This document shows, in pieces, positions 44,085 to 63,200 of a DNA stretch of 64,000 nt. The notes below the pieces were generated by a model. It was not told the origin of the DNA. It saw nothing but the letters and a program-made list of their open reading frames with translations, and searched no databases. Within the stretch, counting starts at the first letter, position 1. Each line of letters begins with the position of its first letter. Source of the stretch: an uncultured delta proteobacterium (lineage in GTDB: Bacteria; Desulfobacterota; Desulfobacteria; Desulfobacterales; Desulfosarcinaceae); the NCBI GenBank assembly GCA_963697225.1, contig CAVONM010000013.1:42375-106374 (forward strand), in the 5' to 3' direction. The translations under genes and the position numbers were made by a program.

Positions 44085-44093
44085 TCCATTCAG

Positions 44094-44807: not shown

Positions 44808-44956
44808 GCGGAATCTCTGCTGTTGCCCCGACAAGGGGCGGGGAATGTGCTCGCTATCGCGGTTCAGCAGGTCAAATGAAGGACTCGAACGCTTGACCAG
44901 ATGCGCCGCACCATAGAAACTGTTAAGACTTCCTTTTATTTCTTCGGGTAACGATT

Positions 44957-45529: not shown

Positions 45530-45828
45530 ATCGCGCAGCTGCCTGCTAAGGTCTGATCCACCATACCAGACAACCCAATGGGACAGCCGAGAGTGGGGCC
45601 TTGGAAAATATCGAATCGCGAATGCTCGCCTTTCACCCTGAAAAAATTGTTGTGACAATGATCACACAACGCTTCAGTACCACATTTTCAGTTGCTCTGG
45701 AAACAACGTTGGATGAAGATGGAACGAAACGTCGATGTCTTTCTCGGCGTAGGCCCAAAAAAATCCTTGTCTGAATCCTGCGCAATTGGTTTAATGCCGG
45801 ATAATATAACGATTCCAACCACAGGGAG

Positions 45829-47587: not shown

Positions 47588-48313
47588 ATGAAAATCATCC
47601 TCAACATCCAGCGTTACAACCCCGACGTCGACGACGCCCCCTACTTCCAGGAATACAGCGTGGAGGTGGGTCCCAACCAGCGGCTGCTGGACGCCTTGAT
47701 GCTGGTCAAACGCTTTCAGGACGGCAGTCTGGGGTTCCGCAAGAGCTGCGCCCACGGCGTCTGCGGGTCCGATGCCATGCGTATAAACGGGAAGGACGGC
47801 CTGGCCTGCAAGACCCTGGTCAAGGAGGTGGCCCAAAAGGAAGGCGATACGGTCACGCTGGAACCGCTCAGGTACCTGCCGGTTCAGCGCGATCTGATCG
47901 TCAACCAGGCCGAATTTTTCAAGAAGTACCGTTCGGTCAAGCCGTTCCTGATCAACGACGAACCGGTGGCGGAAAAAGAACGCATACAGTCACAAGACGA
48001 ACGCATGCAATTCGACGACACCACCAACTGCATCCTGTGCGCCTCGTGCTACTCGGCCTGTCCGGTTCTGCAAGACAATACCGATTTTCTGGGACCGGCC
48101 GCCATCGCCCAGGCCTACCGCTTTAACGCCGACACCCGTGACCGTGGATTCGATGAGCGCTTGGCCGTGCTGGATCAACCCGATGGCGTGTGGCCCTGCC
48201 AGAACCATTTCAAGTGCACGCAATCCTGCCCGCGTTCCATTCTGATTACCAAGCGGATCAACCAGACCAAGCGATTGATCGAGAAACACAAGGAGAAAAA
48301 GGGCGACAACTGA
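47588..48313 (+). CDS. sdhB: Succinate dehydrogenase / fumarate reductase iron-sulfur subunit
   Basis: 2Fe-2S (CAHGVCGSDAMRING), 4Fe-4S and 3Fe-4S (CILCASCYSACP) cysteine clusters. Confidence 0.9.
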   Translation: MKIILNIQRYNPDVDDAPYFQEYSVEVGPNQRLLDALMLVKRFQDGSLGFRKSCAHGVCGSDAMRINGKDGLACKTLVKEVAQKEGDTVTLEPLRYLPVQRDLIVNQAEFFKKYRSVKPFLINDEPVAEKERIQSQDERMQFDDTTNCILCASCYSACPVLQDNTDFLGPAAIAQAYRFNADTRDRGFDERLAVLDQPDGVWPCQNHFKCTQSCPRSILITKRINQTKRLIEKHKEKKGDN

Positions 48314-48323
48314 GTGCGTCGTC

Positions 48324-48845
48324 TCAGTGCGGCGTATCGAAAGAGTCCAGCAGCATTTCGGGATGATCGGCATCATCCCCTTTGGCCTCGGGGTGGCTGT
48401 TGATGAAACGGGCACAGGCGTTCCAGCGCAAGACGGCATCCTGGTTGTGCGGGTCGCAGCCGGCCAGCGCTTCACCATAGGCTTTCATGGCTTTGACGAA
48501 CCAATCATAAGCCACGGTTCCTGAACCCGGGCCGCCCTGATTGAAATGAAACTTGGCCCGCCGCTCGAATACAATCCCAGTGTAATAGGATTTGCAGTAG
48601 GCGCTGTCCAGCCGGGCCACGATGTCCCGGGCTTGTTCAAAGGAGGGGTTGAGCCCGCTCTCGGAAAACATGTCGGTCAATGCCAGCAGAAGGACGATCA
48701 AGGCATCCTGATTGTCGGGGGCGACCGCCAGGATGTCCAGGCAGATGCTTTCCGCCCCGTCCGGTTCATTGAGCATACGATAGCGTTTGGCCATATCGAG
48801 TGCGGATGGAACCGCTTCGGGTTTGAGGGTTTTCAGTTCGACCAT
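48324..48845 (-). CDS. Hypothetical protein
   Basis: ORF with plausible start MVELK. No domain recognised. Confidence 0.35.
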   Translation of the reverse strand: MVELKTLKPEAVPSALDMAKRYRMLNEPDGAESICLDILAVAPDNQDALIVLLLALTDMFSESGLNPSFEQARDIVARLDSAYCKSYYTGIVFERRAKFHFNQGGPGSGTVAYDWFVKAMKAYGEALAGCDPHNQDAVLRWNACARFINSHPEAKGDDADHPEMLLDSFDTPH

Positions 48846-49104
48846 ATCGACCTCCCTTCCGGTTAAGTTGACAGCAGCCATCGATCACTGGAAACCACTA
48901 TTATACGAAGTATTCACTTATTTTCAAGAGGCGGTCACCATCCAATACCGTTTCGTAACGAAATGCTAGAGGGATGCAAACCCTGTCGCCACGCATCAAT
49001 TGGCTCATAAGGATAACTATTACCGTGATCGATTTCAGATGACGGCAAGGGGTGTTTTGCATGGACATTGAAGACAAGCTACCGGGCCGAAACGGATACC
49101 ACCC

Positions 49105-50106
49105 ATGACCTCTCGAGCCACCCTCGTGCTTGCCAACCACCGCCCGGAAACGATTCCAGCGGCGCAGCAGCTGATGGTCCGCCACGATAGGGTGATTCTC
49201 GAAGAACCGCCCGACCCTCAGTTCCTGTCCATGCTCAACGGGCAGGTGCCCATCGATGCCTACCTCGAGACCCAGGACCTGGAGTATCCTGAATTCAGCC
49301 GCCGCATGGCCGACGTCCTGCGCGAATGCCATCGGGCCGGCACCCGGCTATACCAGATCGAGCCCTTTATCGACCATCTGCTGTCCATTCACGAACGGTT
49401 TGCCGGCGGGGACGGTCCGTCGAACCTGCCGACCGGCACGGCCCTGCACCGGGTCTACCTGGCCGAACGGGAAGCCACCGCCGCATTGATCGACTTTTAC
49501 ACCGTGTCGACCAGCGGACCGTTGGCAGCTACCATCGAGGCGGTCAAGCGGTTCGCCCGCAGCGATGCTCAGCGTTTCGCATTGCGTGACCGGATGCGGG
49601 CAGCGGCCATGGCCGACGTCATCGCGGCCCCCGGCCGCACCTATATCGAGGCCGGGCTGATCCACTTTCCCCTGTGGCACGAGCTCAGGCGGCGGCTGCC
49701 GACAGGCTACCCCCTTCGCGTGCATTTTCTCATGGCCGATGCCGTGCGATCCATGGGCTATCGCAGTCACCTGTATGGCCCCGGAGACCTGCTGACCCTG
49801 CACTACCGTTTTCACCCGCAGCGTCGATTTCAAGGGGAAGATCTTCTCGCGGCGCGTGCGCTGATCTACAGCAAACTGATCGCCAAGGACGAGATTATCG
49901 ACGCCGACGAACCTTATCCGCACACCCGTGATGAATTGGAGGTGGGTGCCGTGACAGCCCGGCTCACCTTGACCGACTGTCGCCGCCTGTACCCGCCGAT
50001 CCGAGGGGCGGCCACCACTACAGCCCGTGAGATGGTGCGGCACTATCTGGGCTTTTTCGAGGAAACAGACGAGCCATCCATGAACACAGGGAAAATACCG
50101 CGATGA
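49105..50106 (+). CDS. Hypothetical protein (333 aa), first gene of the inositol/glucosamine operon
   Basis: ORF. ATGA overlap with the HAD gene. No domain recognised. Confidence 0.45.
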   Translation: MTSRATLVLANHRPETIPAAQQLMVRHDRVILEEPPDPQFLSMLNGQVPIDAYLETQDLEYPEFSRRMADVLRECHRAGTRLYQIEPFIDHLLSIHERFAGGDGPSNLPTGTALHRVYLAEREATAALIDFYTVSTSGPLAATIEAVKRFARSDAQRFALRDRMRAAAMADVIAAPGRTYIEAGLIHFPLWHELRRRLPTGYPLRVHFLMADAVRSMGYRSHLYGPGDLLTLHYRFHPQRRFQGEDLLAARALIYSKLIAKDEIIDADEPYPHTRDELEVGAVTARLTLTDCRRLYPPIRGAATTTAREMVRHYLGFFEETDEPSMNTGKIPR

Positions 50107-50756
50107 TCAAAGCGATGCTATTCGATTTCGGGCTGGTTATCTCGACCCCGCGTTCGACGGACTGCTTTCGCGCATACGAACGGGATCTGGGGATCGCCGA
50201 GGGCAGCATCAACCCAATCATGTTCGACGGCCCGGCCTGGCAGGACGCCCTGATCGGTCGGTTGACCATGCAGGCCTACTGGCGTGCCATCGGCCCGTCG
50301 CTGGGCCTGACCAGGCAACGGCAGATCGACGCCTTCCGCTGTCGCTACTACCATGACGAATCCGTCAACCCAGACGTCCTGCGCCTGATTCGGCGGCTCC
50401 ACGGCACTTACTACTTGGCGGTGCTTTCCAATCATCCGCCGGGCCTGGATCAATGGCTGAGCGACTGGGGCATTCGGGATCTTTTCGACGTGATTTACTG
50501 TTCCGGTGACGAGGGCCGGGTCAAACCCGATCCAGCGGTGTACCAAGCCACCCTCGACCGCCTGGGGGTACGGCCGGCCGAAGCCGTATTTATCGACGAT
50601 ACCGCGGGGCACGTGACGGCCGCGCAAGCCTTGGGCATTCACGGGATTGTCTTCAGTGATGCCCACCGTCTCGAAAGGGATCTGGATACCCTTTTGGGTG
50701 AGGACCAGTCAGCTCATCTGCCACCGCGCACCATCGAGACCCCGTATGAAGGTTAA
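50103..50756 (+). CDS. HAD-superfamily hydrolase (beta-phosphoglucomutase/phosphatase-like)
   Basis: MLFDFGLV (motif I DxG variant) and FIDDTAGHV (motif IV). Confidence 0.7.
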   Translation: MIKAMLFDFGLVISTPRSTDCFRAYERDLGIAEGSINPIMFDGPAWQDALIGRLTMQAYWRAIGPSLGLTRQRQIDAFRCRYYHDESVNPDVLRLIRRLHGTYYLAVLSNHPPGLDQWLSDWGIRDLFDVIYCSGDEGRVKPDPAVYQATLDRLGVRPAEAVFIDDTAGHVTAAQALGIHGIVFSDAHRLERDLDTLLGEDQSAHLPPRTIETPYEG

Positions 50757-50760
50757 ACCC

Positions 50761-51483
50761 ATGACGCATCGGAAGACCGCGAAAAGCCTGCTTGGAGCCC
50801 TCCTCCTGGAAGGCGGTGGTGAGTTCGGTGGCAGGATGGCGGACCCCGACCGCGAAGCCCTGTCTGCTGCAGGTGGTCCAAGCGCAAGGGTCGCCATCAT
50901 CCCGGCCGCAGCTGCACCGGACCACAATGACGAACGGGCCGGACAGAACGCGGTGCGCTGGTTTCGACATTTAGGCGCCTTGCAGGTCGAAAGCCTGCCC
51001 CTGGTCGACCGGGTCTCAGCCAATGACCCCGCCATTGCCGACCGCCTGCTCAAGGCCCGACTGATCTACCTGCTGGGCGGGTTTCCCGCTCACCTGGCCC
51101 TCAGCCTTCAGGGCAGCCGCAGCTGGCAGGCCGTGCTGCAGGCTTATAAATCCGGCGCAGTGATTGCCGGCAGCAGTGCCGGAGCCATGGTGCTCTGCAG
51201 CGATTATTACGACCCGGCGGGCCACGCGGTCGCCCCCGGCCTCGGACTTCTTTCCCGCACCTGTGTCATTCCCCATCACGAGACCGTTGGCTGGCGCTGG
51301 GCGCCCGTTTTACAAAAAGCGCTGCCGGACGATGTGCTGTTGGGAATCGATGAAGAAACCGGTGCCCTGAACCTGCCCGCGCAAGACCACTGGCGAGTCT
51401 ACGGCAAAGGGCGGGTAACGCTTTACCGCAAAAACCGGGTGACAGTTTTTGGCCCCGGCCAGACATTCCGTTTGGATGGTTGA
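50761..51483 (+). CDS. Peptidase S51-family protein (cyanophycinase / dipeptidase E-like)
   Basis: IYLLGGFP and AVIAGSSAGAMVL (Ser nucleophile elbow) motifs. Confidence 0.6.
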   Translation: MTHRKTAKSLLGALLLEGGGEFGGRMADPDREALSAAGGPSARVAIIPAAAAPDHNDERAGQNAVRWFRHLGALQVESLPLVDRVSANDPAIADRLLKARLIYLLGGFPAHLALSLQGSRSWQAVLQAYKSGAVIAGSSAGAMVLCSDYYDPAGHAVAPGLGLLSRTCVIPHHETVGWRWAPVLQKALPDDVLLGIDEETGALNLPAQDHWRVYGKGRVTLYRKNRVTVFGPGQTFRLDG

Positions 51484-51699
51484 GGCAACCGCCACGCCAA
51501 TGTGGGAAAACCGGTCACACCGCCTTGAGCGGAATTGCTCAGGACAGTCGAGATCGGGTCGGCTTTTGACTTGCATTCCGAAATCCTCTATACTCATTTG
51601 AATTCTATCCGGACTCAGCGGTATGGTCTTGCCATCCGATGACCTATCGGATCCGGCCATGGCGATTACTCTGAAGCGCTCCCACTGCCCTGTTCAATC

Positions 51700-52965
51700 A
51701 TGAAAGGCCCCATGGCAAATCCTCATGGAAAAATAGTTCTCATGGGTTCCGGTGAGCTGACGGCCACCATGGTGGAGGTGCACAAGGGCCTTTTGCAGCA
51801 GTTGCCGGGAACACCCCGGGCCGTATTTCTGGACACCCCGGCCGGTTTTCAACTCAACGTGGACCAGATATCGGCCCGGGCGGCCGACTATTTTCGGACC
51901 CGTGTCCGCCACCCGCTGACCGTGGCCTCGTTCAAGTCTAACACGCCCACCAGCGACTATGACGACCTTCAGGCAAACCGCGTGTTGCGCCAGGCCGACT
52001 TTGTTCTCATCGGGCCGGGCAGCCCGACCTATGCCTTGCGGCAATGGCAGCAATCGCCCGTACCCGATCTGCTCGCTGACTGCGTAATCACGGGTGGATG
52101 CCTGGTCGCTGCCAGCGCCGCCGCCCTGACCATGGGCCGCTTCACCCTGCCGGTATACGAAATCTACAAGGTCGGGCAGGATCCGCACTGGATTGACGGC
52201 CTGGACCTGTTGGGCCGCTTCGGCCTGAACCTGGTGGTGGTGCCCCACTGGAACAACGCCGAAGGCGGCAACCACGACACGCGTTTCTGCTTTATGGGCG
52301 CCACGCGGTTCGATGCCATGGCGGACATGCTGCCGCACCGACTACCCATACTGGGCCTGGACGAACATACCGCCTGCATCCTGGACCTGGCCACCGATCA
52401 GGCCGAGGTCAAGGGCATCGGCGGCATCACCGTGCGAACCCCCGACGGCGCGATGACGGTCAAGAGCGGTGACCGTTTTGCCCTGTCGGTGTTGCGGGAA
52501 GGGTCGATCACACCCAATCGGATCGTTGAACCACCCGAATCGGAATCCGTGCCACTGCCGACGGATGCCAACCAAGCGTTCTGGCTGAGCGCGCACGACC
52601 TGGTAGCCCGCTTCGAGACAGGCCTCGATCAAGGGGACGCGCGCGCCGCGACGAACGCACTCTTGGAGTTCGACCGCATCGTCTGGTGTGCCCAACACGG
52701 GCTTGAGGATGAGGCGGTCGTTGCCCAGGCCCGCGACACATTACGCGATATGATCGTTCTTTTGGGAAACCAGATGGCCGCCTCACCCAAACTTCGGGAG
52801 GAGCGCCTGGCCCCGCTGGTGGAAGCGCTGCTGGGTCTGCGCCAGAAGCTGCGCCGGGAAGCGCAATGGGACGCGGCCGACATGCTGCGTGCCGCCCTGA
52901 GCGCCATCGGCATTCAGGTGGAAGACACCCCGGACGGCCATCGCTGGCACCTGACATCGCCATAG
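51700..52965 (+). CDS. S51/class-I-glutamine-amidotransferase-like domain fused to a C-terminal domain resembling the anticodon-binding C-terminus of cysteinyl-tRNA synthetase
   Basis: N-terminal KIVLMGSGEL...FVLIGPGSPTYAL has the S51-like fold, with the nucleophile-elbow Ser apparently replaced (TGGCLVAASAA). The C-terminal LRQKLRREAQWDAADMLRAALSAIGIQVEDTPDGHRWHL parallels the E. coli CysRS C-terminus (...[24 protein letters not shown], from memory). Confidence 0.55.
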   Translation: MKGPMANPHGKIVLMGSGELTATMVEVHKGLLQQLPGTPRAVFLDTPAGFQLNVDQISARAADYFRTRVRHPLTVASFKSNTPTSDYDDLQANRVLRQADFVLIGPGSPTYALRQWQQSPVPDLLADCVITGGCLVAASAAALTMGRFTLPVYEIYKVGQDPHWIDGLDLLGRFGLNLVVVPHWNNAEGGNHDTRFCFMGATRFDAMADMLPHRLPILGLDEHTACILDLATDQAEVKGIGGITVRTPDGAMTVKSGDRFALSVLREGSITPNRIVEPPESESVPLPTDANQAFWLSAHDLVARFETGLDQGDARAATNALLEFDRIVWCAQHGLEDEAVVAQARDTLRDMIVLLGNQMAASPKLREERLAPLVEALLGLRQKLRREAQWDAADMLRAALSAIGIQVEDTPDGHRWHLTSP

Positions 52966-53015
52966 TCGATGCAATGCCTGACAGCGGCCATCCATTCACT
53001 GAGGAATCGATAACC

Positions 53016-54668
53016 ATGAAGCAACACCCCCAGCTATCTCTGCTGTTCGTCATGCAGGCATCGCCATCCGGGCCGGCGCCGTTGGTCGCCTATCTTGACG
53101 CGATCCCCCATGTCCGAGTGGATGTTGAACCGGTTTTGCCCGAAAATCTGAGCGACTACGACGTCTTGATCACGCTGGGGACTGCGGCAGGTGCCGTCGG
53201 GCGGGAATTGGAAGATTTTGTCCATGCGGGTGGTGGTTGGCTGGTCGCAGTCGATGCATCACCCGGTCCCCTGCCGGCCCTGCTGGGCGTCGCCGTCGAG
53301 CCGCCCGGACCGGAGGCTGAATTGCGCGTGCTGTTTGAAAGGCCTGATCACCCCTTGGGCGTTCGGCTGCCGGATGCGCTCTATCTGACCGGGCGTTACC
53401 AGGTGCTGACGCCCACCGATGATGACACCGAAACCCTGCTCTATGCCGACTGGCACTATGCGCATACCCCGGTGCTCACCCAGCGCCCGGTGGGCCGGGG
53501 CCAGGTGGCCTGTACCACCCTGCAGGCCCTTGACCATCCTGTGGTGCAGCAAATTTTCTACCGCCTGCTTGTCAATCTCGCCGGCCGCCCGATCACGCCG
53601 GATCCACTAAGCGTGGGGATTTTGGGCTACGCCCCCTCCGTGGGACGGCTGCACGGCCTGGGTATCGACCACACCGCGGGGCTGGAACTGCGGGCCGTGT
53701 GCGACCTGAACCCGGCGCGCAGCGATCAGGCGCGCAAGGATTTCCCGGATATCCGGGTTCTGCCCACGGCTGACGCGCTGGCTGCGGCTGACGGAATCGA
53801 TCTGGTCATTGTGGCCACGCCCCCCAATATCCATGCCGACAATTGCCTGCAGATGATGGCGGCCGGAAAACATGTGGTTTGCGAAAAACCGCTGGCCCTG
53901 AACCGCCGGGAGACCGATGCCCTGCAGAACCTGGCCCAGCAAAACCAGGTCCATTTGAGCTGTCACCAGAACCGCCGGTGGGACCCGGATTACCTCACGA
54001 TCAAAGATAGCCTGAAACGAGGGCTCATCGGCGAGCTGTTCTACCTGGAAACCTTCGTTGGCGACTATCACCACCCCTGCGGGTACTGGCATTCGCACGC
54101 TTCCGTCTCCGGCGGCACCAGCTATGACTGGGGCGCCCACTATCTTGACTGGATCGTCAGCCTGATTCAGCGGCCGATTACGGCGGTGATCGGCACCCGC
54201 CACAAACGGGTCTGGCGGGATGTGACCAATGCCGACCAGGAACGCATTCAAATTCGCTTTGAAGGCGGCATCGAGGCCGAATTTATGCATTCCGACATCG
54301 CCGCGGCCCGCAAGCCGAAATGGTATCTGCTGGGCACTAGCGGGGCGATCACCGGCCGCTGGCAGGATGTGCATACCCACACCATCGATAGAGACCATTA
54401 CTACCGCCGCCACGATATCCCGGTTACCGAGATGACGCCGGAGATGGCCATTTCCTATCGCCGGGCCGAGGGTGAGATCATCCGCATCACCCCGGCCGTG
54501 GCCGAGCGTGAGCCCTATTGCTTCCACCGCAACCTGGCCGACCATCTCCTGCTGGGCGAACCGATCACCGCCCCTTTGGCCGATTCCGTCCAAGTGGTGG
54601 CCATTTTGGAAGCTGCTGCCCGCTCCATGCAGCAGGGAGGCACGCTGGAGGCGCTCGATGGCATCTGA
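53016..54668 (+). CDS. ThuA-like (class I GATase-like) domain fused to a Gfo/Idh/MocA-family NAD(P) oxidoreductase
   Basis: N-terminal about 230 aa are ThuA-like (YDVLITLGTAAG...GGGWLVAVDAS). The C-terminal half has a VGILGYAPSVGRLHG Rossmann motif and the EKP motif (HVVCEKPLA) of Gfo/Idh/MocA. Confidence 0.65.
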   Translation: MKQHPQLSLLFVMQASPSGPAPLVAYLDAIPHVRVDVEPVLPENLSDYDVLITLGTAAGAVGRELEDFVHAGGGWLVAVDASPGPLPALLGVAVEPPGPEAELRVLFERPDHPLGVRLPDALYLTGRYQVLTPTDDDTETLLYADWHYAHTPVLTQRPVGRGQVACTTLQALDHPVVQQIFYRLLVNLAGRPITPDPLSVGILGYAPSVGRLHGLGIDHTAGLELRAVCDLNPARSDQARKDFPDIRVLPTADALAAADGIDLVIVATPPNIHADNCLQMMAAGKHVVCEKPLALNRRETDALQNLAQQNQVHLSCHQNRRWDPDYLTIKDSLKRGLIGELFYLETFVGDYHHPCGYWHSHASVSGGTSYDWGAHYLDWIVSLIQRPITAVIGTRHKRVWRDVTNADQERIQIRFEGGIEAEFMHSDIAAARKPKWYLLGTSGAITGRWQDVHTHTIDRDHYYRRHDIPVTEMTPEMAISYRRAEGEIIRITPAVAEREPYCFHRNLADHLLLGEPITAPLADSVQVVAILEAAARSMQQGGTLEALDGI

Positions 54669-55668
54669 GATCCAATGGGGCATTCTGGGCAACGCCACCA
54701 TCGCCCGCAAATGCGTCATCGGCGCCATCCAGAAATCGCGCAACGGTTGCGTGCGGGCACTGGCCAGCCGATCGCCTGAAAAAGCGCGTGACGTGGCCAG
54801 GCAGCACGGTATTCCCAACCTGTATGGGAGCTATCAGGCGCTGCTCGACGATCCCGCGGTAACGGCGGTTTATCTTCCGCTGCCCAATCACCTGCATTGG
54901 CCCTGGACCCAAAAAGCGCTGGCGGCCGGCAAACACGTCCTGTGTGAAAAGCCAATCGCCTGCAACGCCCAGGAAGCTGAATCGATGGCCGCCGCTGCCC
55001 GCAAGGCCGACCGGCTGCTGATGGAGGCCTTCATGTATCGCTTTCATCCGCGCAGCCGGCGCATCAAGCAGATGGTCGTGCAGGACGAGATCGGCAGGCC
55101 CAGGCTCATCCGGGCGGCGTTTAGCTACCCCATGGCCGCAAAGCTCCTACAGAGCGGTGACAACGCCCGCCTTCGGCCGGAAATGGGCGGCGGTGCGTTA
55201 CTGGACGTGGGCTGTTATGGGGTCAGCGTGGCCCGCTGGTTGATGAACGCCGAACCGGTGAGCGTCCAGGCCCAGGCATCCTTTCATCCTTCCGGCGTGG
55301 ACTGGCACCTGATTGGCAGCCTCTATTTCGGCCCCCGGCGCATGGCCGTCGTCGAAGCCAGTTTTATTGCAGCCCTGCAGCAGACCTACAGCGTGGTGGG
55401 GGACCGCGGGGCCATCGAGCTGCCCCACGACGCCTTTATCCCCTGGGAGAAAGACGCCGTGTTCGTGCTGCGCGGCCTTGACGACGAGACCGGCACCCGG
55501 CAGACCATCGCCGGTGTTGACGAATATCAATTGATGGTGGAGCATTTTGCCGACGCCGTGCTGGATCTTTCACCACTGGCCTATTCACCCGAAGAGAGCA
55601 TCGCCAACATGCGGGTGTTGGACGCCCTGTCCCGGGCCGCCCGCAGCGGCCGGCGTGAGGCGATATGA
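54658..55668 (+). CDS. Gfo/Idh/MocA-family oxidoreductase (inositol/sugar dehydrogenase-like)
   Basis: WGILGNATIARK Rossmann motif and HVLCEKPIA motif. Confidence 0.8.
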   Translation: MASEIQWGILGNATIARKCVIGAIQKSRNGCVRALASRSPEKARDVARQHGIPNLYGSYQALLDDPAVTAVYLPLPNHLHWPWTQKALAAGKHVLCEKPIACNAQEAESMAAAARKADRLLMEAFMYRFHPRSRRIKQMVVQDEIGRPRLIRAAFSYPMAAKLLQSGDNARLRPEMGGGALLDVGCYGVSVARWLMNAEPVSVQAQASFHPSGVDWHLIGSLYFGPRRMAVVEASFIAALQQTYSVVGDRGAIELPHDAFIPWEKDAVFVLRGLDDETGTRQTIAGVDEYQLMVEHFADAVLDLSPLAYSPEESIANMRVLDALSRAARSGRREAI

Positions 55669-56726
55669 CCGGCGACCCAAAGTATCCGCAAGGGATGGAA
55701 ACGGAAAACGGCCCCATGCGCAGCGCAGCAGCGACCCGCCACGATGTTCGGACCGAAACCCTGGAGAGCCTGGCAAGATACTGGCAAGGTGGCGAACATA
55801 CGCTGAAATGGGCCTGCCCCTTCGTTCTGCCACAATGGCTGAGCGCCTGGTGGCCAATCGCTGACAGGGATTGGTCACCATATATCCTGTCCGTATACCA
55901 CCAAGGGCTGCTGGCTGGCATCGCCCCGCTGATGCGAAGAGACCACCAGGCCCGTCTCATCGGTGATGCCGACCTCTGCGATCATCTGGATGTCGTCGTG
56001 GTCCCGCAGCATGCCGAGAAATTTTGCCAGGCCCTGCTCGATGGTCTGGCGCGTGACGGGGTCCGAGAGCTGGAGTTGTCGCCAATTCGCCAGGATTCAT
56101 CGGTGATGACCCACCTGATACCCATGGCCGAAGAATGGGGTGTGCGGGTCAGCCATGACCACCTTGCCCAATTGTTTGCCATGCCACTGCCCGCCAGTTG
56201 GGAGTCCTATCTTCAGGGTCTGAGTGGCAAGGAGCGCCATGAGATCCGGCGAAAGATCAGACGGCTTCACCAAGCCGGCCGCGTGACCCTGCGCTGCATT
56301 GGTCATGCTGCCGAGGTGCCGGCGGCCATGGAGACCTTTTTGACCCTGTTCAAGGCCAACCGAACCGACAAGGCGGCCTTCATGACCGACAAGATGATGG
56401 CCTTTTTTCTCCGATTGGCCGCTAACCTGGCCGCATCGGATCTCTTGAAACTGTACTTTTTGGATCTGGACGGCCGGCCCGTCGCGGCAACCCTGTGCAT
56501 CGATGACCGGTCCACGGTCTACCTTTACAACAACGGCTATGATGCGGCGTACCAGTCCCTGAGCATCGGCCTGCTGAGCAAGGTGCTAACCATAAAGGCC
56601 AGCATCGGTGACGGCCGGCAGGTCTATGATTTTCTCAAGGGCTCGGAAGCATACAAAAGTAGATTGGGCGGCCAGCCGATAGATGTTTACGGTTGCTCGC
56701 TGGAATTCGGCCAAACTGGGAAATGA
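55665..56726 (+). CDS. GNAT-fold acyltransferase of the FemAB-like/CelD/BioF2-like type (Acetyltransf_6)
   Basis: The C-terminal LKLYFLDLDGRPVAATLCIDDRSTVYLYNNGYD...SIGLLSKVL...YDFLKGSEAYKSRLGGQP pattern is characteristic of this family. ATGA overlap with the upstream gene. Confidence 0.6.
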   Translation: MTGDPKYPQGMETENGPMRSAAATRHDVRTETLESLARYWQGGEHTLKWACPFVLPQWLSAWWPIADRDWSPYILSVYHQGLLAGIAPLMRRDHQARLIGDADLCDHLDVVVVPQHAEKFCQALLDGLARDGVRELELSPIRQDSSVMTHLIPMAEEWGVRVSHDHLAQLFAMPLPASWESYLQGLSGKERHEIRRKIRRLHQAGRVTLRCIGHAAEVPAAMETFLTLFKANRTDKAAFMTDKMMAFFLRLAANLAASDLLKLYFLDLDGRPVAATLCIDDRSTVYLYNNGYDAAYQSLSIGLLSKVLTIKASIGDGRQVYDFLKGSEAYKSRLGGQPIDVYGCSLEFGQTGK

Positions 56727-57963
56727 GATGTCGATGAAGCCACTGACCATCGCCATGCTCAGCATCCATTCCAGCCCTATCGGAGAGCTGGGCACCCGTG
56801 ACACCGGCGGCATGAGCGTCTACGTGCGGGAACTGGCCCGCGAAATGGGCAACATGGGGCACCAGGTGGATATTTTCACCCATGCGTGGCGCGACGATGC
56901 ATCGACGGTAGTGGTCCTGGCCACCCGTGTCCGCCTGATATCACTCAGCATCAGCCACCGCGGTCCGCATTCCAAGGCCGGTCTTTATGCCCATGCGGGC
57001 GACCATGCTGCAACCATCGAGGGCTTTCGCCGACACCAAGCGCGCACCTACGACCTGATCCACAGCCATTACTGGCTTTCGGGTCACGTGGGCCGGCTGC
57101 TCAAGGAGCGCTGGCAGCGGCCCCACGCGATTACCTTTCATACGCTGGGCGCTGCGAAGGCCGAGACCGGTGTCGGCGCTGTCGAACCCACCCTTCGGCT
57201 GGCGGTTGAAAAGGAGCTGGTATTGGCCTGTGACGGTCTGCTGGCACCCTGTGAGGGTGAAAAAACCAATTTGATGCATTATTATGGAGCAGATGCAGCC
57301 AAAATCGCCATGGTCCCCGGTGGCGTTGATGTTGACCACTTTCGGCCCATGGACAAAACCATGGCCCGGCGGCGGCTGGGAATTGACCCCCGCGTCAGCT
57401 TGCTGCTTGCCATCGGGCGGCTGACACCCCAGAAGGGACAGGACCGGATCATCGAGGCGCTGCCCCACATTGAAACCGGGAGCCGGCCGCAGTTGCTGGT
57501 GGTGGGAGGCAACGGAGACGGTGACCCTGAACGGCGACGCCTGCAGAATATTGCCGCCGCAGCGGGCGTGCAGGAACGGGTAACCTTTTGCGGCAGCGTT
57601 GCCCACCGCGACCTGCCGGTGTATTATGCGGCGGCGGATGTCGTCGTGCTGGCCTCACATTATGAAAGCTTCGGGCTGGTGGGTATAGAGGCCCTGGCAT
57701 GCGGGCGGCCGGTGGTTTCCACCCCGGTGGGTGTGATGGCCGAACTGGCCCGCCTGCAGCGACCCGGCATTATCACTGCCGAGGGGTCACCGGCCGCCTT
57801 GGCCGCAGGTATCACCATCGCCGGGGATCGGGCGCTGGACTGGCCCGACCACATCATTCGCCAGAGCGTCAGGGACTATGGCTGGACCAACGCGACTGCG
57901 GCGGCCCTGGCGGCCTACCGGGCCGCCATGCAGGTCGCCCCTGCCGTCCATGGGTGGCCATGA
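56727..57963 (+). CDS. GT4 glycosyltransferase, MshA/BshA-like (predicted UDP-GlcNAc:inositol-phosphate or similar N-acetylhexosaminyl transferase)
   Basis: N-terminal IAMLSIHSSPIGELGTRDTGGMSVYV and C-terminal EXXXXE-type ESFGLVGIEALACGRPVV motifs of GT4 retaining transferases. Organisation closely resembles MshA. Confidence 0.75.
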
Positions 57964-58069
57964 ATGCCCGGTCATTCAGCCGATGCATTGCGTCTCACAT
58001 TGATCGGTAACACACCCATCACGTTTCATCCGCCATCGTCCAACCCGGGCGGATGATGAAAGGATAACC

Positions 58070-58804
58070 ATGAAACTGATTGTTCATGACACGATTCCGG
58101 ACGCGCCGGCACGGAAGCCCTGTGACGTCCTCGTGCTCTCGGCGCATCCGGATGACGCCGAATTCGGGGCTGCCGGGACGGTCATTCGCTGGGTCGATGA
58201 GGGCCGGCGCATCGTTTATGCCATTGCCACCAATGGTGACAAAGGTACCAGCGATCGCACCCTGACCCCTGAGGTGCTGGCCGCCATTCGCCGGGACGAA
58301 CAGGCACGCGCGGCCACATCTATCGGCGTCCACGAAATCGTTTACCTGGGATACCCGGATCAGGGTCTCGAGGATACCCCCGCGCTGCGCAAGGACGTCG
58401 TTCGCCTGTTGCGGATTTTTCGCCCCCGCATACTGGTCACTTCGGATCCGTATCGGCGCTATCTTTGGCACCGGGACCATCGCATCATCGGCCAGGTGGC
58501 CATGGATGCCGTGTTTCCTTACGCCCGGGACCACATGGCCTATCCCGATCTTCTCGAAAAGGGCCTGGAACCCCACAAGGTGGCAGAGGTCTTCTTCTGG
58601 GGGACCGAAGACATCGACTACCGCTCGGATATTACCGACACATTCGAGCGTAAAATCAAAGCCCTGCGCTGCCACGCCAGCCAGATGAAAGAATTCAGGT
58701 TTTCGGACCCGGTGGAATGGTTAAAGGAGCGCTGTCGCGAGATGGCCCAAGGCTCCGATTTTGAACTGGCCGAAGGGTTTCATCGGGTGGCCCTGCCGAT
58801 GTAG
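58070..58804 (+). CDS. PIG-L/LmbE-family N-acetylglucosaminyl deacetylase (MshB/BshB-like)
   Basis: VLSAHPDDAEFGAAGT zinc-binding motif. HRDH present. Confidence 0.8.
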   Translation: MKLIVHDTIPDAPARKPCDVLVLSAHPDDAEFGAAGTVIRWVDEGRRIVYAIATNGDKGTSDRTLTPEVLAAIRRDEQARAATSIGVHEIVYLGYPDQGLEDTPALRKDVVRLLRIFRPRILVTSDPYRRYLWHRDHRIIGQVAMDAVFPYARDHMAYPDLLEKGLEPHKVAEVFFWGTEDIDYRSDITDTFERKIKALRCHASQMKEFRFSDPVEWLKERCREMAQGSDFELAEGFHRVALPM

Positions 58805-58889
58805 CCCTTTCTGGTGATTCCCATTCATACGGTCGGCATCCGCGGCTGCGGCTGCCTCTCCATTAAAACCTAAAAAAGGTGATAAACGC

Positions 58890-60254
58890 GTGTACAAACG
58901 ATCCGAAGCACCACACAACGCCAGGAACAGCCCCACCCCCGTTGCGCGGCCTGAAGGTCGCCTGGGGGTGTTGATTCCGGGTATGGGGGCAGTGGCCACC
59001 ACGTTTATCGGCGGTGTGCTGGCAATTCGCCGCGGCCTGGGCAAACCGATCGGCGCCCTGTCCCAAATGGGTACCCTGTCGATGGGCGGCGCCCCGTCCG
59101 AGGGCGACCGCCTGATCCGGGATGTGGTTCCCCTGGCCCGGATGGACGACCTCGTTTTCGGCGGCTGGGACATCTTCGATGACGACATGTATGCCGCTGC
59201 CGTCACTGCCGGGGTGCTGGCACAACCGACCCTGGATGGCATCCGATCGGACCTGCAGGCCATACGGCCAATGCCGGCAGTGTTTGACAGGCGTTATGTC
59301 AACCGGCTCGACGGACGCCACACCAAGTCGGGACGCTCCAAAATGGATCTTGCCGATCAGGTTCGTGCGGACATCCGGGCTTTCAAGGCCGCCAACGGCC
59401 TTGCACGCATGGTCATGATCTGGTGCGGCAGCACCGAAGTCTATTCCCAGCCAGGGCCGGTGCACCAATCCGTGAGCAGTTTTGAAGCGGGTCTGAAAAC
59501 CGACGATCCGGGAATCGCCCCCAGCATGATATACGCCTATGCGGCCATCCAGGAAGGTCTGCCATTTGTCAACGGCGCCCCCAATTTGACAGAGGAGATT
59601 CCCGCCCTGCAGGCCATGGCGCAGCAACACCAGGTGCCCCTGAGCGGCAAGGATTTCAAGACCGGTCAGACCATGATCAAAACCGTTCTGGCACCCGCTT
59701 TCAGGGCGCGGCTGCTGGGGGTCGCCGGCTGGTTTTCCACCAACATATTAGGCAATCGGGACGGCGAGGTGCTGGATGACCCACAGGCGCTGAAGGCCAA
59801 AGAGATCAGTAAACTGAGCGCGTTGGAGCATATCCTGCAGCCGGGATTATTCCCCGATCTTTACGCGGATCTGCATCACAGTGTCAAAATCAACTATTAC
59901 CCGCCGCGGGGTGACAACAAAGAAGGCTGGGACAATATCGATATTTTCGGCTGGCTCGGGTATCCCATGCAAATCAAGATCAATTTTCTGTGCCGCGACA
60001 GCATCCTGGCTGCCCCACTGGTATTGGATGTGGCCTTGTTTATGGATCTGGCGGCACGCGCCGGTTGGCACGGCCCGCAGGACTGGCTCTCTTTTTATTA
60101 CAAAAGCCCGATTACCCCCGCGGGCGTATCGGTAGAACACGATCTGTTTAAACAACTCGAGCGATTGACTGCCAGGCTGAACCAGGCCGCGCAGGCGGCC
60201 GTTCGAAGCAAGGCGTTTAGTGGCAACCACCAAAAAAGGAGACTTTCAACATGA
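58890..60254 (+). CDS. ino1: myo-Inositol-3-phosphate synthase (bacterial/archaeal type)
   Basis: 454 aa. N-terminal NAD-binding LGVLIPGMGAVATTFIGGV and conserved MIPS core motifs (NGAPNL, SGKDFKTGQT). Confidence 0.8.
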   Translation: MYKRSEAPHNARNSPTPVARPEGRLGVLIPGMGAVATTFIGGVLAIRRGLGKPIGALSQMGTLSMGGAPSEGDRLIRDVVPLARMDDLVFGGWDIFDDDMYAAAVTAGVLAQPTLDGIRSDLQAIRPMPAVFDRRYVNRLDGRHTKSGRSKMDLADQVRADIRAFKAANGLARMVMIWCGSTEVYSQPGPVHQSVSSFEAGLKTDDPGIAPSMIYAYAAIQEGLPFVNGAPNLTEEIPALQAMAQQHQVPLSGKDFKTGQTMIKTVLAPAFRARLLGVAGWFSTNILGNRDGEVLDDPQALKAKEISKLSALEHILQPGLFPDLYADLHHSVKINYYPPRGDNKEGWDNIDIFGWLGYPMQIKINFLCRDSILAAPLVLDVALFMDLAARAGWHGPQDWLSFYYKSPITPAGVSVEHDLFKQLERLTARLNQAAQAAVRSKAFSGNHQKRRLST

Positions 60255-60712
60255 AGCAACTGCAACCGGGAAATGCAGCACCGGCGTTCAGCGCATTGGA
60301 TCAGCACGGCGGTAGCGTCAATCTGTCCGATTTCAAGGGGCGCAGGGTATTCATCTTTTTCTACCCCAAAGCCAATACCTCCGGCTGAACGACCCAGGCC
60401 CAGGCGGTGCGGGACGCACTGCCCGATCTGACGGCTGCCGGCGTGGCCGTTATTGGCATCAGTCCGGACCCGGTCGCTCAGCAGAAAAAATTCGACGACA
60501 AGCACGGTCTGGGGTTTGCCCTGCTCAGCGACAGCGACCACCACATTGCCGACGCCTACGGCGTGTGGGGCGAAAAGAAAATGACTGGCAAGACCTATAT
60601 GGGGATCGAGCGGTCGGCGTTTTTGATCAATGAATCTGGCAACATCAGCGCCACCGGTTACAACATCAGCCCCCAGCAAACGATGCCCGCATTGAAGCAG
60701 TGGCTGGCGTGA
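60251..60712 (+). CDS. bcp: Peroxiredoxin (Bcp/PrxQ-type) with an in-frame TGA at the peroxidatic Cys position: predicted selenocysteine-containing peroxiredoxin
   Basis: Reads ...VFIFFYPKANTSG-TGA-TTQAQAVRD... The canonical Bcp motif is FYPKA.TPGCTTQAC. The TGA (60386-60388) is in frame with the ATG at 60251, which overlaps the ino1 stop as ATGA. The protein has no Cys at all. A 9-bp hairpin lies 15 nt downstream of the TGA. Confidence 0.7.
60403..60423 (+). promoter_or_regulatory. Candidate SECIS-like hairpin (GGCGGUGCG-GGA-CGCACUGCC) 15 nt downstream of the in-frame UGA
   Basis: Base pairing read from the sequence (one G-U pair). The position is appropriate for a bacterial SECIS. The apical loop is small, so the real structure may differ. 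Confidence 0.35.
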
Positions 60713-60807
60713 CGCAACGCCGACCGTGAACCGCGGTGTTCTGATGTCAATGAAATCCTTGCCCCATATCGATTTAATCGCTCAAATTTAACCGGTGGAG
60801 AAAAAAG

Positions 60808-61416
60808 ATGAACGCGCGACAGATAATGGACAGCGATGAATTCAAGCGCTGTGAGGCCTTTCACGGCCACGTGTGCGGCGGGCTGGCCATCGGCTATGTG
60901 GCGGCCAGGGCCGGGCTGGACTGGCTGCGGGAAAAGCGGGCTCTGGACGAAGAACTGGTGGCTATCGTGGAAACCGATGCCTGCTGTGTGGACGCTATCC
61001 AGGTGGTCACCGGCTGCACGTTGGGCAAAGGCAACCTCATCTTCCGGGACTACGGGAAGATGGGCTTTACCTTTTTCAACCGCCGCACCGGCCAGGGGGT
61101 GCGGTTGGCCATGAAACCGGACACCATCCGCGTCAACCATCGGCAGGTCGAACTACTCGGAAAAACGCGTGACGGCAGCATCACGGAAGCGGAAAAAGCC
61201 GAATTGGAAACATTGGGTAACCAGCGAACAGCCGAGGTGTTGGAAACCCGCGCCGGCGACCTGTTCTGCATGACACCGGTCACCGCCGGCATGCCGGACA
61301 GGGCCCGCATCGAGCCCTCAACACCCTGCGCCCGCTGTGGTGAGCCCACCATGGGGTCCAAACTGGCGTCGGTGGATGGCCACGCGGTTTGTCGGGCCTG
61401 CTTGGCCGCGGATTAA
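60808..61416 (+). CDS. FmdE-family protein with C-terminal zinc ribbon
   Basis: FHGHVCGGLAIGY signature of FmdE. C-terminal CARCGEP...CRAC. Confidence 0.7.
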   Translation: MNARQIMDSDEFKRCEAFHGHVCGGLAIGYVAARAGLDWLREKRALDEELVAIVETDACCVDAIQVVTGCTLGKGNLIFRDYGKMGFTFFNRRTGQGVRLAMKPDTIRVNHRQVELLGKTRDGSITEAEKAELETLGNQRTAEVLETRAGDLFCMTPVTAGMPDRARIEPSTPCARCGEPTMGSKLASVDGHAVCRACLAAD

Positions 61417-61457
61417 CTAATGGTGCCTCTATCGCGGGAGAATGTCGCGGCCATGGG

Positions 61458-62060
61458 TCACTTTGCCGCGGTATAGATGTCGTTCACCCGATCCCAGTTG
61501 ACGACGTTGAAGAAGGCGCCGATGTAATCCGGCCGGCGGTTCTGGTACTTCAGGTAATAGGCATGCTCCCAGACGTCGATGCCCATGACCGGTGTCTTTC
61601 CCTGGCTGATGGGATTGTCCTGGTTGGGCGTTGCCACGATCTCCAGATTGCCCTTGTCCAGCACCAGCCAGGTCCACCCGCTGCCGAAAAGGAGGGCGGC
61701 GGTATTCGAAAAGGTCTCCTTGAATTTCTCATGGCTGCCGAATCGTTTTTTGACGGCATCGGCAACCGGCCCACCGAACGTGACATCTTTTTTCAGCATC
61801 GGCCACCAGAACGAGTGGTTGGCATGCCCGCCGCCGTGATTGCGCACGGCTGTGCGGATGTCCTCGGGAACTGTATCGAGACTCTTCAAGAGCGCTTCGG
61901 CGCTTTTATCCTTAAACACCTCATGACCACTGAGGGCGCCATTCAGCTTGTCCACATAGGTCTGGTGGTGCTTCGTGTGGTGAATTTCCATGGTCCTGGC
62001 GTCGAAATAAGGTTCTAAAGCGTCATATGCGTAGGGTAGTTTTGGCAATGTATGATTCAT
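61458..62060 (-). CDS. sod: Fe/Mn superoxide dismutase
   Basis: [25 protein letters not shown]...DVWEHAYYL. 200 aa. Confidence 0.95.
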
Positions 62061-62237
62061 GGTTGGTTCTCCGGGTTGTGGTTTGCCAGCGGGAGATGAA
62101 CCGACTCACCTGTGCGCGACTAAACGCGCCGATTCCACGTGAACCGATGCTGTCCCGCTGTTGACAAACAATGGCGACGCACCTAAAATAAATCAAATCG
62201 ATAATTATTATATCAACATCAAAAAAAACTATATTAC

Positions 62238-63200
62238 ATGATTACCCATACCCAACTGGAGTACCTGGTGGCCGTGGACCGCCACGGGAGTTTCTCGGCG
62301 GCAGCCGCCCGGTGTTTTGTCACCCAGCCGACGTTGAGCATGCAGATTCAAAAACTAGAGGCGGAATTGGGTGTGACCTTGTTCGACCGAGGCCGGAAAC
62401 CGGTTGAGGCCACACCTGTCGGGAAGGCCGTCATTGACCGGGCCTACCGGACGCTGCGGGAATTCAAGGGCATCGTCGAGTTGGTCCATGATCAGCGGGA
62501 AGCCGTCTCGGGAGAGCTGCGCGTGGGCATCATTCCTACCCTGGGTGCTTATCTGCTGCCCCGGTTCATCCCGGATCTGCTCACATCCTATCCGCTGGTT
62601 CGGATGACCATTCAGGAACGGCTCACCGGTGACATTGTCGAGGGGTTGCGGCGGGATCTGCTGGATGTCGGCATTGCCGCCACGCCCTTGGAAGAAAAAG
62701 GGATTCGGGAGACGCCGTTGTTCCGTGAGCCGTTCTATGCCTTGGTCTCCGCCGGCCACCGGCTGGCAGACAAGAAGCGGCTGTCAACCGGGGACCTCGC
62801 GCCGGATGAGATGATTCTGCTGGACAGCGGCCACTGCCTGCGCAAACAGGTGTCCCGAATTTGCATGGGGACCTTTAACCAGGATGATCACCCGTCGGTC
62901 AGGCTGCGATTTGTGGGTGGCAGCCTGGAAGGCCTGATACGGATCGTGGAATCGGGGTACGGGGTCACGCTGCTTCCCGAATTGGCCGCCATGACCCTGG
63001 CAAAAGGTTCTCGGGAGCTGCTGCATCCGCTTGAAGCCCCGGTGCCCGCACGCGAGGTGAGCCTCATCACCCATGGGGAAGGCGTCAAGACCCGGCTGCT
63101 GGAGATCCTCAAACTGTCGATTCTAAAGGGTCTTCCTGCTGGGTTGAAAGATGCCGAAGGCGGTCACGCCCTGCGCGTTATCGGCGCAGGGAAGGCCTGA
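62238..63200 (+). CDS. oxyR: LysR-family regulator, OxyR-like (peroxide sensor)
   Basis: LysR HTH. LDSGHCLRKQVSRIC reproduces the OxyR redox Cys pair spacing (E. coli GHCLRDQAMGFC). Divergent from sod. Confidence 0.7.
   Translation: MITHTQLEYLVAVDRHGSFSAAAARCFVTQPTLSMQIQKLEAELGVTLFDRGRKPVEATPVGKAVIDRAYRTLREFKGIVELVHDQREAVSGELRVGIIPTLGAYLLPRFIPDLLTSYPLVRMTIQERLTGDIVEGLRRDLLDVGIAATPLEEKGIRETPLFREPFYALVSAGHRLADKKRLSTGDLAPDEMILLDSGHCLRKQVSRICMGTFNQDDHPSVRLRFVGGSLEGLIRIVESGYGVTLLPELAAMTLAKGSRELLHPLEAPVPAREVSLITHGEGVKTRLLEILKLSILKGLPAGLKDAEGGHALRVIGAGKA

Follow-up and report, generated by a model that had tools for sequence, protein, structure and literature searches.

A conserved gene cluster of Desulfobacterota as a candidate pathway for a mycothiol-like small thiol with a tRNA-dependent amino-acid step

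Results

Gene content and layout of the cluster

We analyzed a stretch of 64,000 nucleotides (hereafter the window; contig CAVONM010000013.1, positions 42,375 to 106,374) from an uncultured member of the Desulfosarcinaceae, in which eleven consecutive plus-strand genes, g1 to g11, occupy positions 49105-60712 and were assigned by Pfam and NCBIfam searches. This cluster, whose wide conservation among Desulfobacterota was confirmed, most likely builds a glucosamine (GlcN)-inositol compound and adds an amino acid to it, probably cysteine. An initial annotation had read the region as a single-strand operon for a mycothiol- or bacillithiol-like compound; all the genes that it named were recovered at their positions on the plus strand, and every one of its domain assignments was upheld. 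The features are as follows:

49105-50106, plus strand: g1, conserved hypothetical protein of 333 amino acids
50103-50756, plus strand: g2, HAD-IA phosphatase
50746-51483, plus strand: g3, stand-alone Peptidase_S51 protein, cyanophycinase/PepE-like
51566-51594, plus strand: promoter-like TTGACT-17-TATACT, located between g3 and g4
51700-52965, plus strand: g4, Peptidase_S51 plus CysS_C, the signature gene of the cluster
52974 or 53016 (start) to 54668, plus strand: g5, ThuA-like plus Gfo/Idh/MocA
54658-55668, plus strand: g6, Gfo/Idh/MocA, sugar or cyclitol oxidoreductase
55665-56726, plus strand: g7, Acetyltransf_6/FemAB_like, tandem GNAT
56728-57963, plus strand: g8, MshA-like family 4 glycosyltransferase (GT4)
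58070-58804, plus strand: g9, PIG-L/LmbE
58890-60254, plus strand: g10, myo-inositol-1-phosphate (inositol-3-phosphate) synthase (MIPS)
60251-60712, plus strand: g11, AhpC/TSA, Bcp/PrxQ-type peroxiredoxin with a predicted selenocysteine

The tight packing described earlier was verified, with ATGA overlaps at g1/g2 (50103-50106), g6/g7 (55665-55668) and g10/g11 (60251-60254), and 11-nt overlaps at g2/g3 and at g5/g6. The sole large gap in the cluster separates g3 from g4 (216 nt, 51484-51699). The promoter-like site within it matches 10 of 12 consensus positions and is followed by a conserved leader of about 105 nt preceding g4; both hexamers are kept in three related loci (L005, L006 and L007) and nearly so in a fourth (L008). 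An Rfam scan of positions 48000-62500 returned no riboswitch, T-box or selenocysteine insertion sequence (SECIS) model and only one match, at chance level. Because the gap holds a promoter-like site, g4 to g11 probably form a transcription unit of their own, so that the single strand of the annotated operon stands, whereas the cluster would comprise two units rather than one.

Sugar and cyclitol enzymes of the cluster

The product of g10 was recognised as MIPS by its NAD_binding_5 (E 2.6e-91) and Inos-1-P_synth (E 9.2e-32) domains. For g8, the top NCBIfam model was MshA (TIGR03449), which gave 271.5 bits across the whole protein, short of its cutoff of 462.5; the runner-up family scored 114 bits, BshA (TIGR03999, cutoff 273.7) 85.5 bits and sucrose-phosphate synthase 71 bits. 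Its best solved relative is the MshA of Corynebacterium glutamicum (3c48/3c4q, E 1e-57), followed by a cyanobacterial sucrose-phosphate synthase. The initial annotation had asked whether g8 might group with ordinary glycogen- or sucrose-type GT4s; these models reached at most 99 bits, far below the score of the MshA model, and this assignment was discarded.

We then aligned 54 cluster GT4s to the C. glutamicum enzyme, whose residue numbers are used here. Y110, H133, T134 and R154 are kept in all 54 sequences, as are the donor-site residues R231, K236, E316 and E324; the K78 position holds Lys in 44 and Arg in six more, and the N25 position holds Ser in 52. In MshA, K78, Y110, T134 and R154 reportedly contact the inositol phosphate (Vetting et al. 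2008).

The deacetylase g9 belongs to the LmbE family (Pfam PIG-L, E 2.3e-29), and AHPDD and HRDH motifs are visible in its sequence. All of its NCBIfam matches fall below cutoff, namely BshB1 (TIGR04001) with 95.6 bits (cutoff 182.5), BshB2 with 80.2, Mca with 68 and MshB (TIGR03445) with 38.7 bits (cutoff 224). For g2, matches to Pfam Hydrolase/HAD_2 and to NCBIfam HAD-SF-IA-v3 (58.3 bits, above cutoff) indicate a phosphatase, which from its setting is a candidate for the MshA2-type removal of phosphate from N-acetylglucosaminyl-inositol-3-phosphate (GlcNAc-Ins-3-P). On the simplest reading of these sequences, the route would run from inositol-3-phosphate (Ins-3-P) through GlcNAc-Ins-3-P and GlcNAc-Ins to GlcN-Ins.

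Both oxidoreductases were also compared with models and solved structures. g5 carries Pfam and NCBIfam matches to Gfo/Idh/MocA and a ThuA match of 29.6 bits, below the cutoff of 33.4; its closest solved relatives are the uncharacterised oxidoreductase 3e18 and Bacillus subtilis YvaA (3gfg, 112.7 bits), which we take to be the scyllo-inositol dehydrogenase IolW. g6 scores 138.8 bits with Gfo6 xylose dehydrogenase and 106.2 bits with IolG, in each case short of the cutoff, and in the Protein Data Bank (PDB) it neighbours glucose-fructose oxidoreductase, aldose-aldose oxidoreductase and a sugar 3-ketoreductase. Because g5 lies near YvaA and g6 near the glucose-fructose and aldose oxidoreductases, a myo-to-scyllo cyclitol epimerisation by the pair is a reasonable possibility.

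A Fem/MprF-type fold and a cysteinyl-tRNA synthetase anticodon module

The g7 product matches Acetyltransf_6 (E 6.7e-32) and FemAB_like in Pfam. Its AlphaFold2 model is confident (mean pLDDT, the predicted local distance difference test, of 89.2) and displays a tandem-GNAT fold of the FemX/FemA/MprF type, with the natural-product enzyme Sbb17 among the top structural matches and the MprF/L-PGS lipid aminoacylases and peptidoglycan Fem enzymes as further neighbours. Sequence searches against the PDB found no similarity to any solved Fem/MprF member, and Acetyltransf_6 also holds CoA-dependent proteins such as BspF, which g7 matches at 44 bits. From its modelled fold we propose that g7 may be an aminoacyl-tRNA:GlcN-inositol aminoacyltransferase; a precedent for Fem-like, tRNA-dependent acylation of an amino-sugar amine is given by Maruyama et al. 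2016, as cited in PMC12945691.

In g4, an S51 domain is fused to a C-terminal module of cysteinyl-tRNA synthetase (CysRS), with Pfam scores of 24.4 bits for Peptidase_S51 (cutoff 23.9) and 27.6 bits for CysS_C (cutoff 23). When searched against the PDB, the family profile matched CysRS C-termini with E values of 6e-7 to 6e-6 (8qhp, E 6e-7; E. coli 1li5 residues 338-459, E 3e-6) and, weakly, one S51 protein (6nqc, E 0.034). Residues from about 300 to 417 of g4 align to E. coli CysRS 338-459, which spans the helical-bundle and anticodon-binding domains, and in this alignment R427, W432, D436 and R439 of E. coli CysRS correspond to R385, W390, D394 and R397 of g4. These four CysRS residues have been mutated to alter anticodon specificity, and R427 is named as the hydrogen-bond partner of G34 (PMC13449415). 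Conservation was scored on 118 full-length representatives at 50% identity, 32-55% identical to the window protein: R385 is kept in 114 of 118, an aromatic residue at 390 in 115, D394 in 116 and R397 in 116, and the Ser-His-Glu triad of the S51 domain is equally well kept (S139, 117; H183, 118; E222, 114). The CysRS-C-terminal-like domain noted earlier is thus real, and its anticodon-reading residues are retained.

Foldseek placed the CysRS-tRNACys complex 1u0b and PepE (6a4r) as top matches of g4, and also found 6nqc, all from a poor model. The stand-alone protein g3 shares the S51 fold with its Ser-His-Glu triad (Peptidase_S51 E 3.5e-15, 56.7 bits; cyanophycinase model 59 bits, below cutoff), and hhalign aligned it with the g4 family at 97% probability over the whole of g3, triad included; by sequence, g3 is a paralogue of the N-terminal domain of g4. 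A role of the S51 proteins in cyanophycin metabolism was ruled out, there being no cyanophycin synthetase present.

Because the S51 domain takes the place of the CysRS catalytic domain, g4 should be unable to activate cysteine with ATP. A class-I synthetase catalytic domain was found in none of the eleven products, in line with the annotated absence of any MshC or BshC homologue from the operon. The anticodon module suggests that g4 binds tRNACys, and that it would either deliver Cys-tRNACys to g7 or itself form a cysteinyl-serine intermediate.

Conservation across Desulfobacterota

The g4 protein has thousands of homologues, and clustering at 50% identity divides its family into about 549 groups; when one genome per species was scanned, the family turned up in at least 587 species representatives. 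Among the matches listed, relatives of g4 come almost entirely from metagenome-assembled genomes (MAGs) of Desulfobacterota, with a few from Nitrospirota, and the closest relatives are Desulfosarcina-like MAGs. The cluster had been called unexpected in a deltaproteobacterium, which proved overstated given how common it is across Desulfobacterota. Our search of the available literature found no description of the cluster or of the family combining S51 with the CysRS C-terminus, and no report of a mycothiol-like pathway or an S51/tRNA protein in Desulfobacterota.

We compared the proteins of the window with 80 related loci (numbered with an L), clustered all open reading frames (ORFs) and, among the 50 loci with at least 7 kb downstream of g4, counted the families found near it:

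GNAT (g7): 41 of 50 loci
GT4 (g8): 40 of 50 loci
ThuA-Gfo (g5): 35 of 50 loci
Gfo (g6): 35 of 50 loci
LmbE (g9): 32 of 50 loci
second S51 (g3): 18 of 50 loci
HAD (g2): 15 of 50 loci, on either strand
MIPS (g10): 9 of 50 loci
g1: 5 of 50 loci
peroxiredoxin (g11): 5 of 50 loci

Several gene orders occur, the minimal recurrent form being g4-GNAT-GT4-LmbE, and g5 and g6 are always paired, as an optional insert. Dozens of other genomes show this gene order again, and the arrangement is not due to chance. g1 found no match in Pfam, NCBIfam or the PDB, and it adjoins the cluster only in the window and in L004-L007. Its homologues of about 65% identity in Desulfatitalea alkaliphila and in a 7.7-Mb genome, the two genomes checked, sit in unrelated contexts; although ATGA-coupled to the HAD gene, g1 is therefore probably not part of the pathway and, having neither family, structure nor conserved context, was dropped as a member.

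Other genomes place three further families beside or within the cluster, in several arrangements; as judged by analogy, they are of the kind that acetylate, recycle and use a small thiol. One is a double GNAT of 310 amino acids that scores best with the mycothiol synthase MshD model (100.5 bits across the whole protein, cutoff 163) and in L076 is flanked by GT4 and LmbE. The second joins a mycoredoxin-like domain (82.4 bits against a cutoff of 89.5) to a thioredoxin reductase (317 bits against 343) and stands directly upstream of the S51-g4 pair (with HAD ahead of it in L015 and L017) in L015, L017 and L018. The third, a glyoxalase-II-like metallo-beta-lactamase hydrolase, is present in 14 loci, often paired with the HAD gene. 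These neighbours lend independent support to the thiol reading of the initial annotation.

Further features of the related loci were recorded. A tRNA-Val(GAC) gene lies 0.2-8.3 kb upstream of g4 in L033, L037, L045, L048 and L056, which probably reflects shared neighbourhood ancestry and not a functional link, and a tRNA-Tyr gene lies upstream of the cluster in one related locus. By eye, CbiM/CbiQ/CbiO-type metal-transporter genes of the energy-coupling factor (ECF) type stand between GT4 and MIPS in several related clusters (L013 13633-16161, L015 11526-13557, L017 16908-19651). Distant relatives with the S51 and CysRS C-terminal domains were found at L084 9016-10269, L085 2000-3253, L086 8001-9245 and L087 2492-3760. 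In two metagenomic contigs, a stand-alone relative of g4 directly follows CtaA-ClpS-DUF2017, where ClpS beside a predicted tRNA-binding protein makes a curious pairing; one relative placed after ClpS and DUF2017 has an actinobacterial-looking context, and others are without related neighbours.

A predicted selenoprotein peroxiredoxin and its surroundings

At the peroxidatic-cysteine position of g11, the reading frame holds an in-frame TGA (60386-60388; translation FYPKANTSG*TTQ). With this residue read as cysteine, the protein scored 172.3 bits with the NCBIfam Bcp equivalog (cutoff 140) and 128.9 bits with Pfam AhpC-TSA. The codon is followed by a hairpin:

60403-60423, plus strand: SECIS-like hairpin GGCGGUGCG-GGA-CGCACUGCC, beginning 14 nt past the UGA

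Both the in-frame TGA and the frame on either side of it are kept in L004-L007, making five genomes with the window, and the hairpin is identical in all five; of these, L006 alone was given the full 9-bp stem by ViennaRNA, the other four being folded into a related extended stem-loop. With its conserved UGA and downstream stem-loop, g11 is a predicted selenoprotein peroxiredoxin, of a '1-Sec' Bcp type lacking any cysteine, and for want of one it would have to be reduced by an external thiol or redoxin. The ORF listing splits g11 at the UGA, and an ORF caller would truncate or miss the gene. The ATGA coupling of the peroxiredoxin was confirmed, whereas its description as dedicated was not: the link occurs only in the window and four close relatives, and g11 was ruled out as a conserved member of the pathway.

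Downstream of g11, the following genes were identified:

60808-61416, plus strand: FmdE-domain protein with a C-terminal zinc ribbon (Pfam FmdE, E 4e-40)
61458-62060, minus strand: Mn/Fe superoxide dismutase (NCBIfam SOD[Mn] 256.6 bits, below the cutoff of 363)
62238-63200, plus strand: OxyR-like LysR regulator (top NCBIfam match OxyR, 199.9 bits, cutoff 329)

The OxyR and superoxide dismutase genes reported next to the operon are thus in place. The regulator shows a GHCLR...C motif with two Cys nine residues apart, the dismutase gene is also adjacent in L005, and the FmdE-domain gene follows the peroxiredoxin in L004-L007 as well, that is, only in the close clade. Elsewhere in the window, positions 30001-46000, just upstream of sdhAB genes, have a G+C content of 0.49-0.56 as compared with about 0.59-0.65 in the flanks, with the minimum at 42-46 kb, and may be a foreign or differently composed segment. 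Judged by eye, one ORF starting MDILKRELAPIPQQAWAEID is encapsulin shell-like and another is ferritin/rubrerythrin-like (window positions 31592-32410 and 18521-19018).

Discussion

A proposed pathway

The domain assignments, the residue conservation, g7's fold, the shared synteny and the neighbours of thiol type are observations; from them we infer the following scheme, in its substrates, order of steps, choice of cysteine and thiol product alike. MIPS (g10) would make Ins-3-P, to which the MshA-like GT4 (g8) would transfer GlcNAc from UDP-GlcNAc, yielding GlcNAc-Ins-3-P. The HAD phosphatase (g2) would take off the phosphate, and the LmbE deacetylase (g9) would free the amine of glucosamine, which g7 would then acylate with an amino acid taken from an aminoacyl-tRNA. 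Because its invariant partner g4 carries the tRNACys anticodon-binding module of CysRS, this amino acid is probably cysteine, with g4 recruiting Cys-tRNACys for g7 or, alternatively, bearing the cysteinyl group on its own serine as an acyl intermediate. Optional tailoring or turnover may be the task of the Gfo pair (g5, g6) and of g3 and, in the clade of the window, the thiol compound could be the external reductant of the coupled selenocysteine (Sec) peroxiredoxin.

We tentatively favour, at somewhat below an even chance, a pathway to a low-molecular-weight thiol resembling mycothiol, with a step that depends on tRNA standing in for the ATP-dependent cysteine ligase, MshC or BshC. Our confidence is greater in the GlcN-inositol core than in the full thiol model, and smaller in the precise role of g4. 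That Desulfobacterota and some Nitrospirota hold a new major Cys-GlcN-cyclitol thiol made in a tRNA-dependent manner, with g4 representing a new class of aminoacyl-tRNA-utilising enzyme, is a wider claim that we consider doubtful.

Several points weigh against the thiol pathway. The equivalog models for MshA, MshB, BshA, BshB1 and MshD all score below their curated cutoffs, so that the cluster enzymes are relatives and not orthologues of the Msh and Bsh proteins. Although the mycothiol-type gene logic of the initial annotation holds within the window, HAD adjoins the cluster in just 15 of the 50 loci and MIPS in 9, so that inositol phosphate would be only a tentative acceptor in the other genomes. 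The Gfo pair, the ThuA domain and the two S51 domains have no counterpart in mycothiol or bacillithiol synthesis. The predicted structure of g4 is poor (pLDDT 61.5), with residues 137-197 around the catalytic region disordered. The relatives of g4 in L084-L087 stand alone, with neither GNAT, GT4 nor LmbE, and since such divergent members occur by themselves, g4 may have a general tRNACys-linked role that is independent of the pathway and was recruited by the cluster. No dedicated tRNACys gene was found near the window or in the 58 related loci scanned, and the peroxiredoxin link is confined to the one clade formed by the window and L004-L007.

Alternative products

Much of the evidence for a GlcN-inositol core would serve equally well for a product that is no thiol, that is, an aminoacyl- or acyl-glucosaminyl-inositol or a pseudodisaccharide acting as compatible solute or cytoplasmic metabolite, with g7 adding an amino acid other than cysteine and g4 being unrelated or regulatory. 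The MIPS-GT4-HAD-LmbE logic holds whatever the amino acid, the Fem-type enzymes among the structural matches of g7 mostly use Gly-, Ala-, Ser- or Lys-tRNA, relatives of g4 also occur outside the cluster, and inositol-based solutes are common in anaerobes. We nevertheless regard such a product as unlikely. The anticodon module of g4 is specific to CysRS, with its GCA-reading residues conserved, and the MshD-like, mycoredoxin-like/thioredoxin reductase and glyoxalase-II-like neighbours fit thiol chemistry and not osmolyte synthesis. Moreover, solute-type genes such as DIPPS and GpgS were not recognised in the related loci, where annotation covered part of the neighbouring ORFs; the initial annotation had named operon conservation with di-myo-inositol-phosphate or glucosylglycerate genes as an argument against its own reading. 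An envelope glycoconjugate would be, for example, a GlcN-phosphatidylinositol like that of glycosylphosphatidylinositol (GPI), a GlcN-lipid or an aminoacylated wall or lipid component; the GT4 and LmbE proteins would then resemble PIG-A and PIG-L, and the Fem/MprF-fold g7 would aminoacylate a lipid or a peptidoglycan precursor. LmbE indeed belongs to the PIG-L family, MprF/L-PGS and the peptidoglycan Fem enzymes are structural neighbours of g7, and g8 weakly matches GlcN-phosphatidylglycerol synthase (75.7 bits). Compared with PDB sequences, however, g8 is far closer to MshA (199 bits) than to the lipid-acting PimB' (60 bits), and it keeps the positions at which MshA reportedly contacts the phosphate of a soluble inositol phosphate; neither a CDP-alcohol phosphatidyltransferase nor a flippase nor an MprF-type membrane domain was recognised in the cluster, and inspection of the eleven products by eye, with no predictor run, revealed no evident membrane-spanning segment. 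An envelope role thus appears improbable.

One of the top structural matches of g7, Sbb17, is itself a natural-product enzyme acting on an amino sugar, and MshA/MshB-like pairs are known in aminoglycoside pathways, so an aminocyclitol or aminoglycoside-like secondary metabolite also has to be considered. Here the GT4/LmbE pair would correspond to BtrM/BtrD (NeoD/NeoL), the cyclitol would be tailored by the two Gfo-type oxidoreductases, which act on cyclitols or sugars, and a tRNA-dependent acylation of the streptothricin type would take place. Yet the cluster has no aminotransferase, 2-deoxy-scyllo-inosose synthase, resistance or export genes, its neighbours are redox housekeeping genes, and it recurs in hundreds of species representatives with its sequences highly conserved, a pattern usual in primary metabolism. 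These points make a secondary metabolite very improbable. The reading given the lowest probability has the cluster salvage or degrade a GlcNAc- or inositol-containing glycoside or peptide conjugate from outside, with LmbE and the S51 proteins as amidases and ThuA-Gfo and Gfo cleaving the glycoside oxidatively in the manner of the trehalose proteins ThuAB. The Pfam family description assigns ThuA and Gfo a catabolic role in the trehalose system, S51 enzymes are known as hydrolases (PepE, cyanophycinase), and Mca-type LmbE enzymes, whose model g9 matches, are amidases. Against degradation stand the biosynthetic MIPS, the nucleotide-sugar GT4 with its four donor residues intact and the transferase fold of g7; the cluster includes no uptake transporter or binding protein, and the Gfo pair is missing from 15 of 50 otherwise complete clusters.

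Comparison with known systems

The system that we favour, a tRNA-dependent route to a small thiol, works like mycothiol and bacillithiol synthesis, yet it is a member of neither pathway, as it lacks the ligase of each and falls short of all the equivalog cutoffs. With the mycothiol pathway (Ino1, MshA, MshA2, MshB, MshC, MshD) it shares MIPS, a GT4 that matches MshA best, an LmbE deacetylase and a phosphatase candidate, to which some related loci add the MshD-like double GNAT and the mycoredoxin-like domain. MshC, with its CysRS catalytic domain, is replaced by the Fem/MprF-fold g7 and the S51-CysRS anticodon fusion g4; the Gfo pair, the ThuA domain and the S51 genes are extra; no protein reaches the level of MshD proper, the acetyl-CoA-dependent double GNAT of TIGR03448; and the hosts are Desulfobacterota and Nitrospirota, whereas those of mycothiol are Actinobacteria. 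Bacillithiol synthesis (BshA, BshB, BshC) offers the same GT4-then-LmbE logic, the best model of g9 is BshB1, and the cysteine-adding step is the unconventional one there as well. In g8, by contrast, BshA scores far lower than MshA (85.5 against 271.5 bits), MIPS indicates inositol phosphate and not malate as the acceptor, BshA and BshB1 stay below their cutoffs, and none of the eleven products is BshC-like.

In comparison with the Fem/MprF enzymes (FemX, FemA, Sbb17/Orf11, L-PGS), g7 has neither the coiled-coil arm of FemA nor the membrane domain of MprF, and its constant partner is a protein with an anticodon-binding domain of its own; we know of no Fem system with such a partner. g4 is homologous to CysRS in its C-terminal region, including the four anticodon-domain residues, and differs in having the S51 Ser-His-Glu domain instead of the Rossmann catalytic domain, the CP domain and the zinc site. 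In fold and triad motifs, g3 and the g4 N-terminal domain agree with the S51 family (PepE, cyanophycinase), although their context includes no cyanophycin synthetase, and g4 is fused to a tRNA-binding module and has AASAAA and not GxSAGA as its nucleophile motif. Like other bacterial Sec peroxiredoxins of the Bcp type, g11 has the UGA at the peroxidatic position and a hairpin downstream; unlike them, it has no resolving or other Cys and is coupled translationally to a MIPS gene.

Implications

We know of no main small thiol identified so far in sulfate-reducing and syntrophic Desulfobacterota, and the cluster presents a concrete candidate pathway for one in hundreds of species; if this holds, it could explain how these anaerobes handle oxygen and electrophile stress. 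Nor do we know of a gene assigned to the GlcNAc-Ins-P phosphatase of the mycothiol pathway, a step for which the HAD gene g2 offers a candidate. Cysteine addition is the least understood reaction of bacillithiol synthesis and a drug target in mycobacteria; a tRNA-dependent version of it would link the substrates of translation to the synthesis of a redox buffer. The family joining S51 to a CysRS anticodon domain would then represent a novel type of enzyme that recognises tRNA, in which g4 selects Cys-tRNACys by its anticodon and either hands it to g7 or loads its own serine, and the members that stand alone in other phyla would indicate a broader, so far unrecognised, tRNACys-dependent biochemistry.

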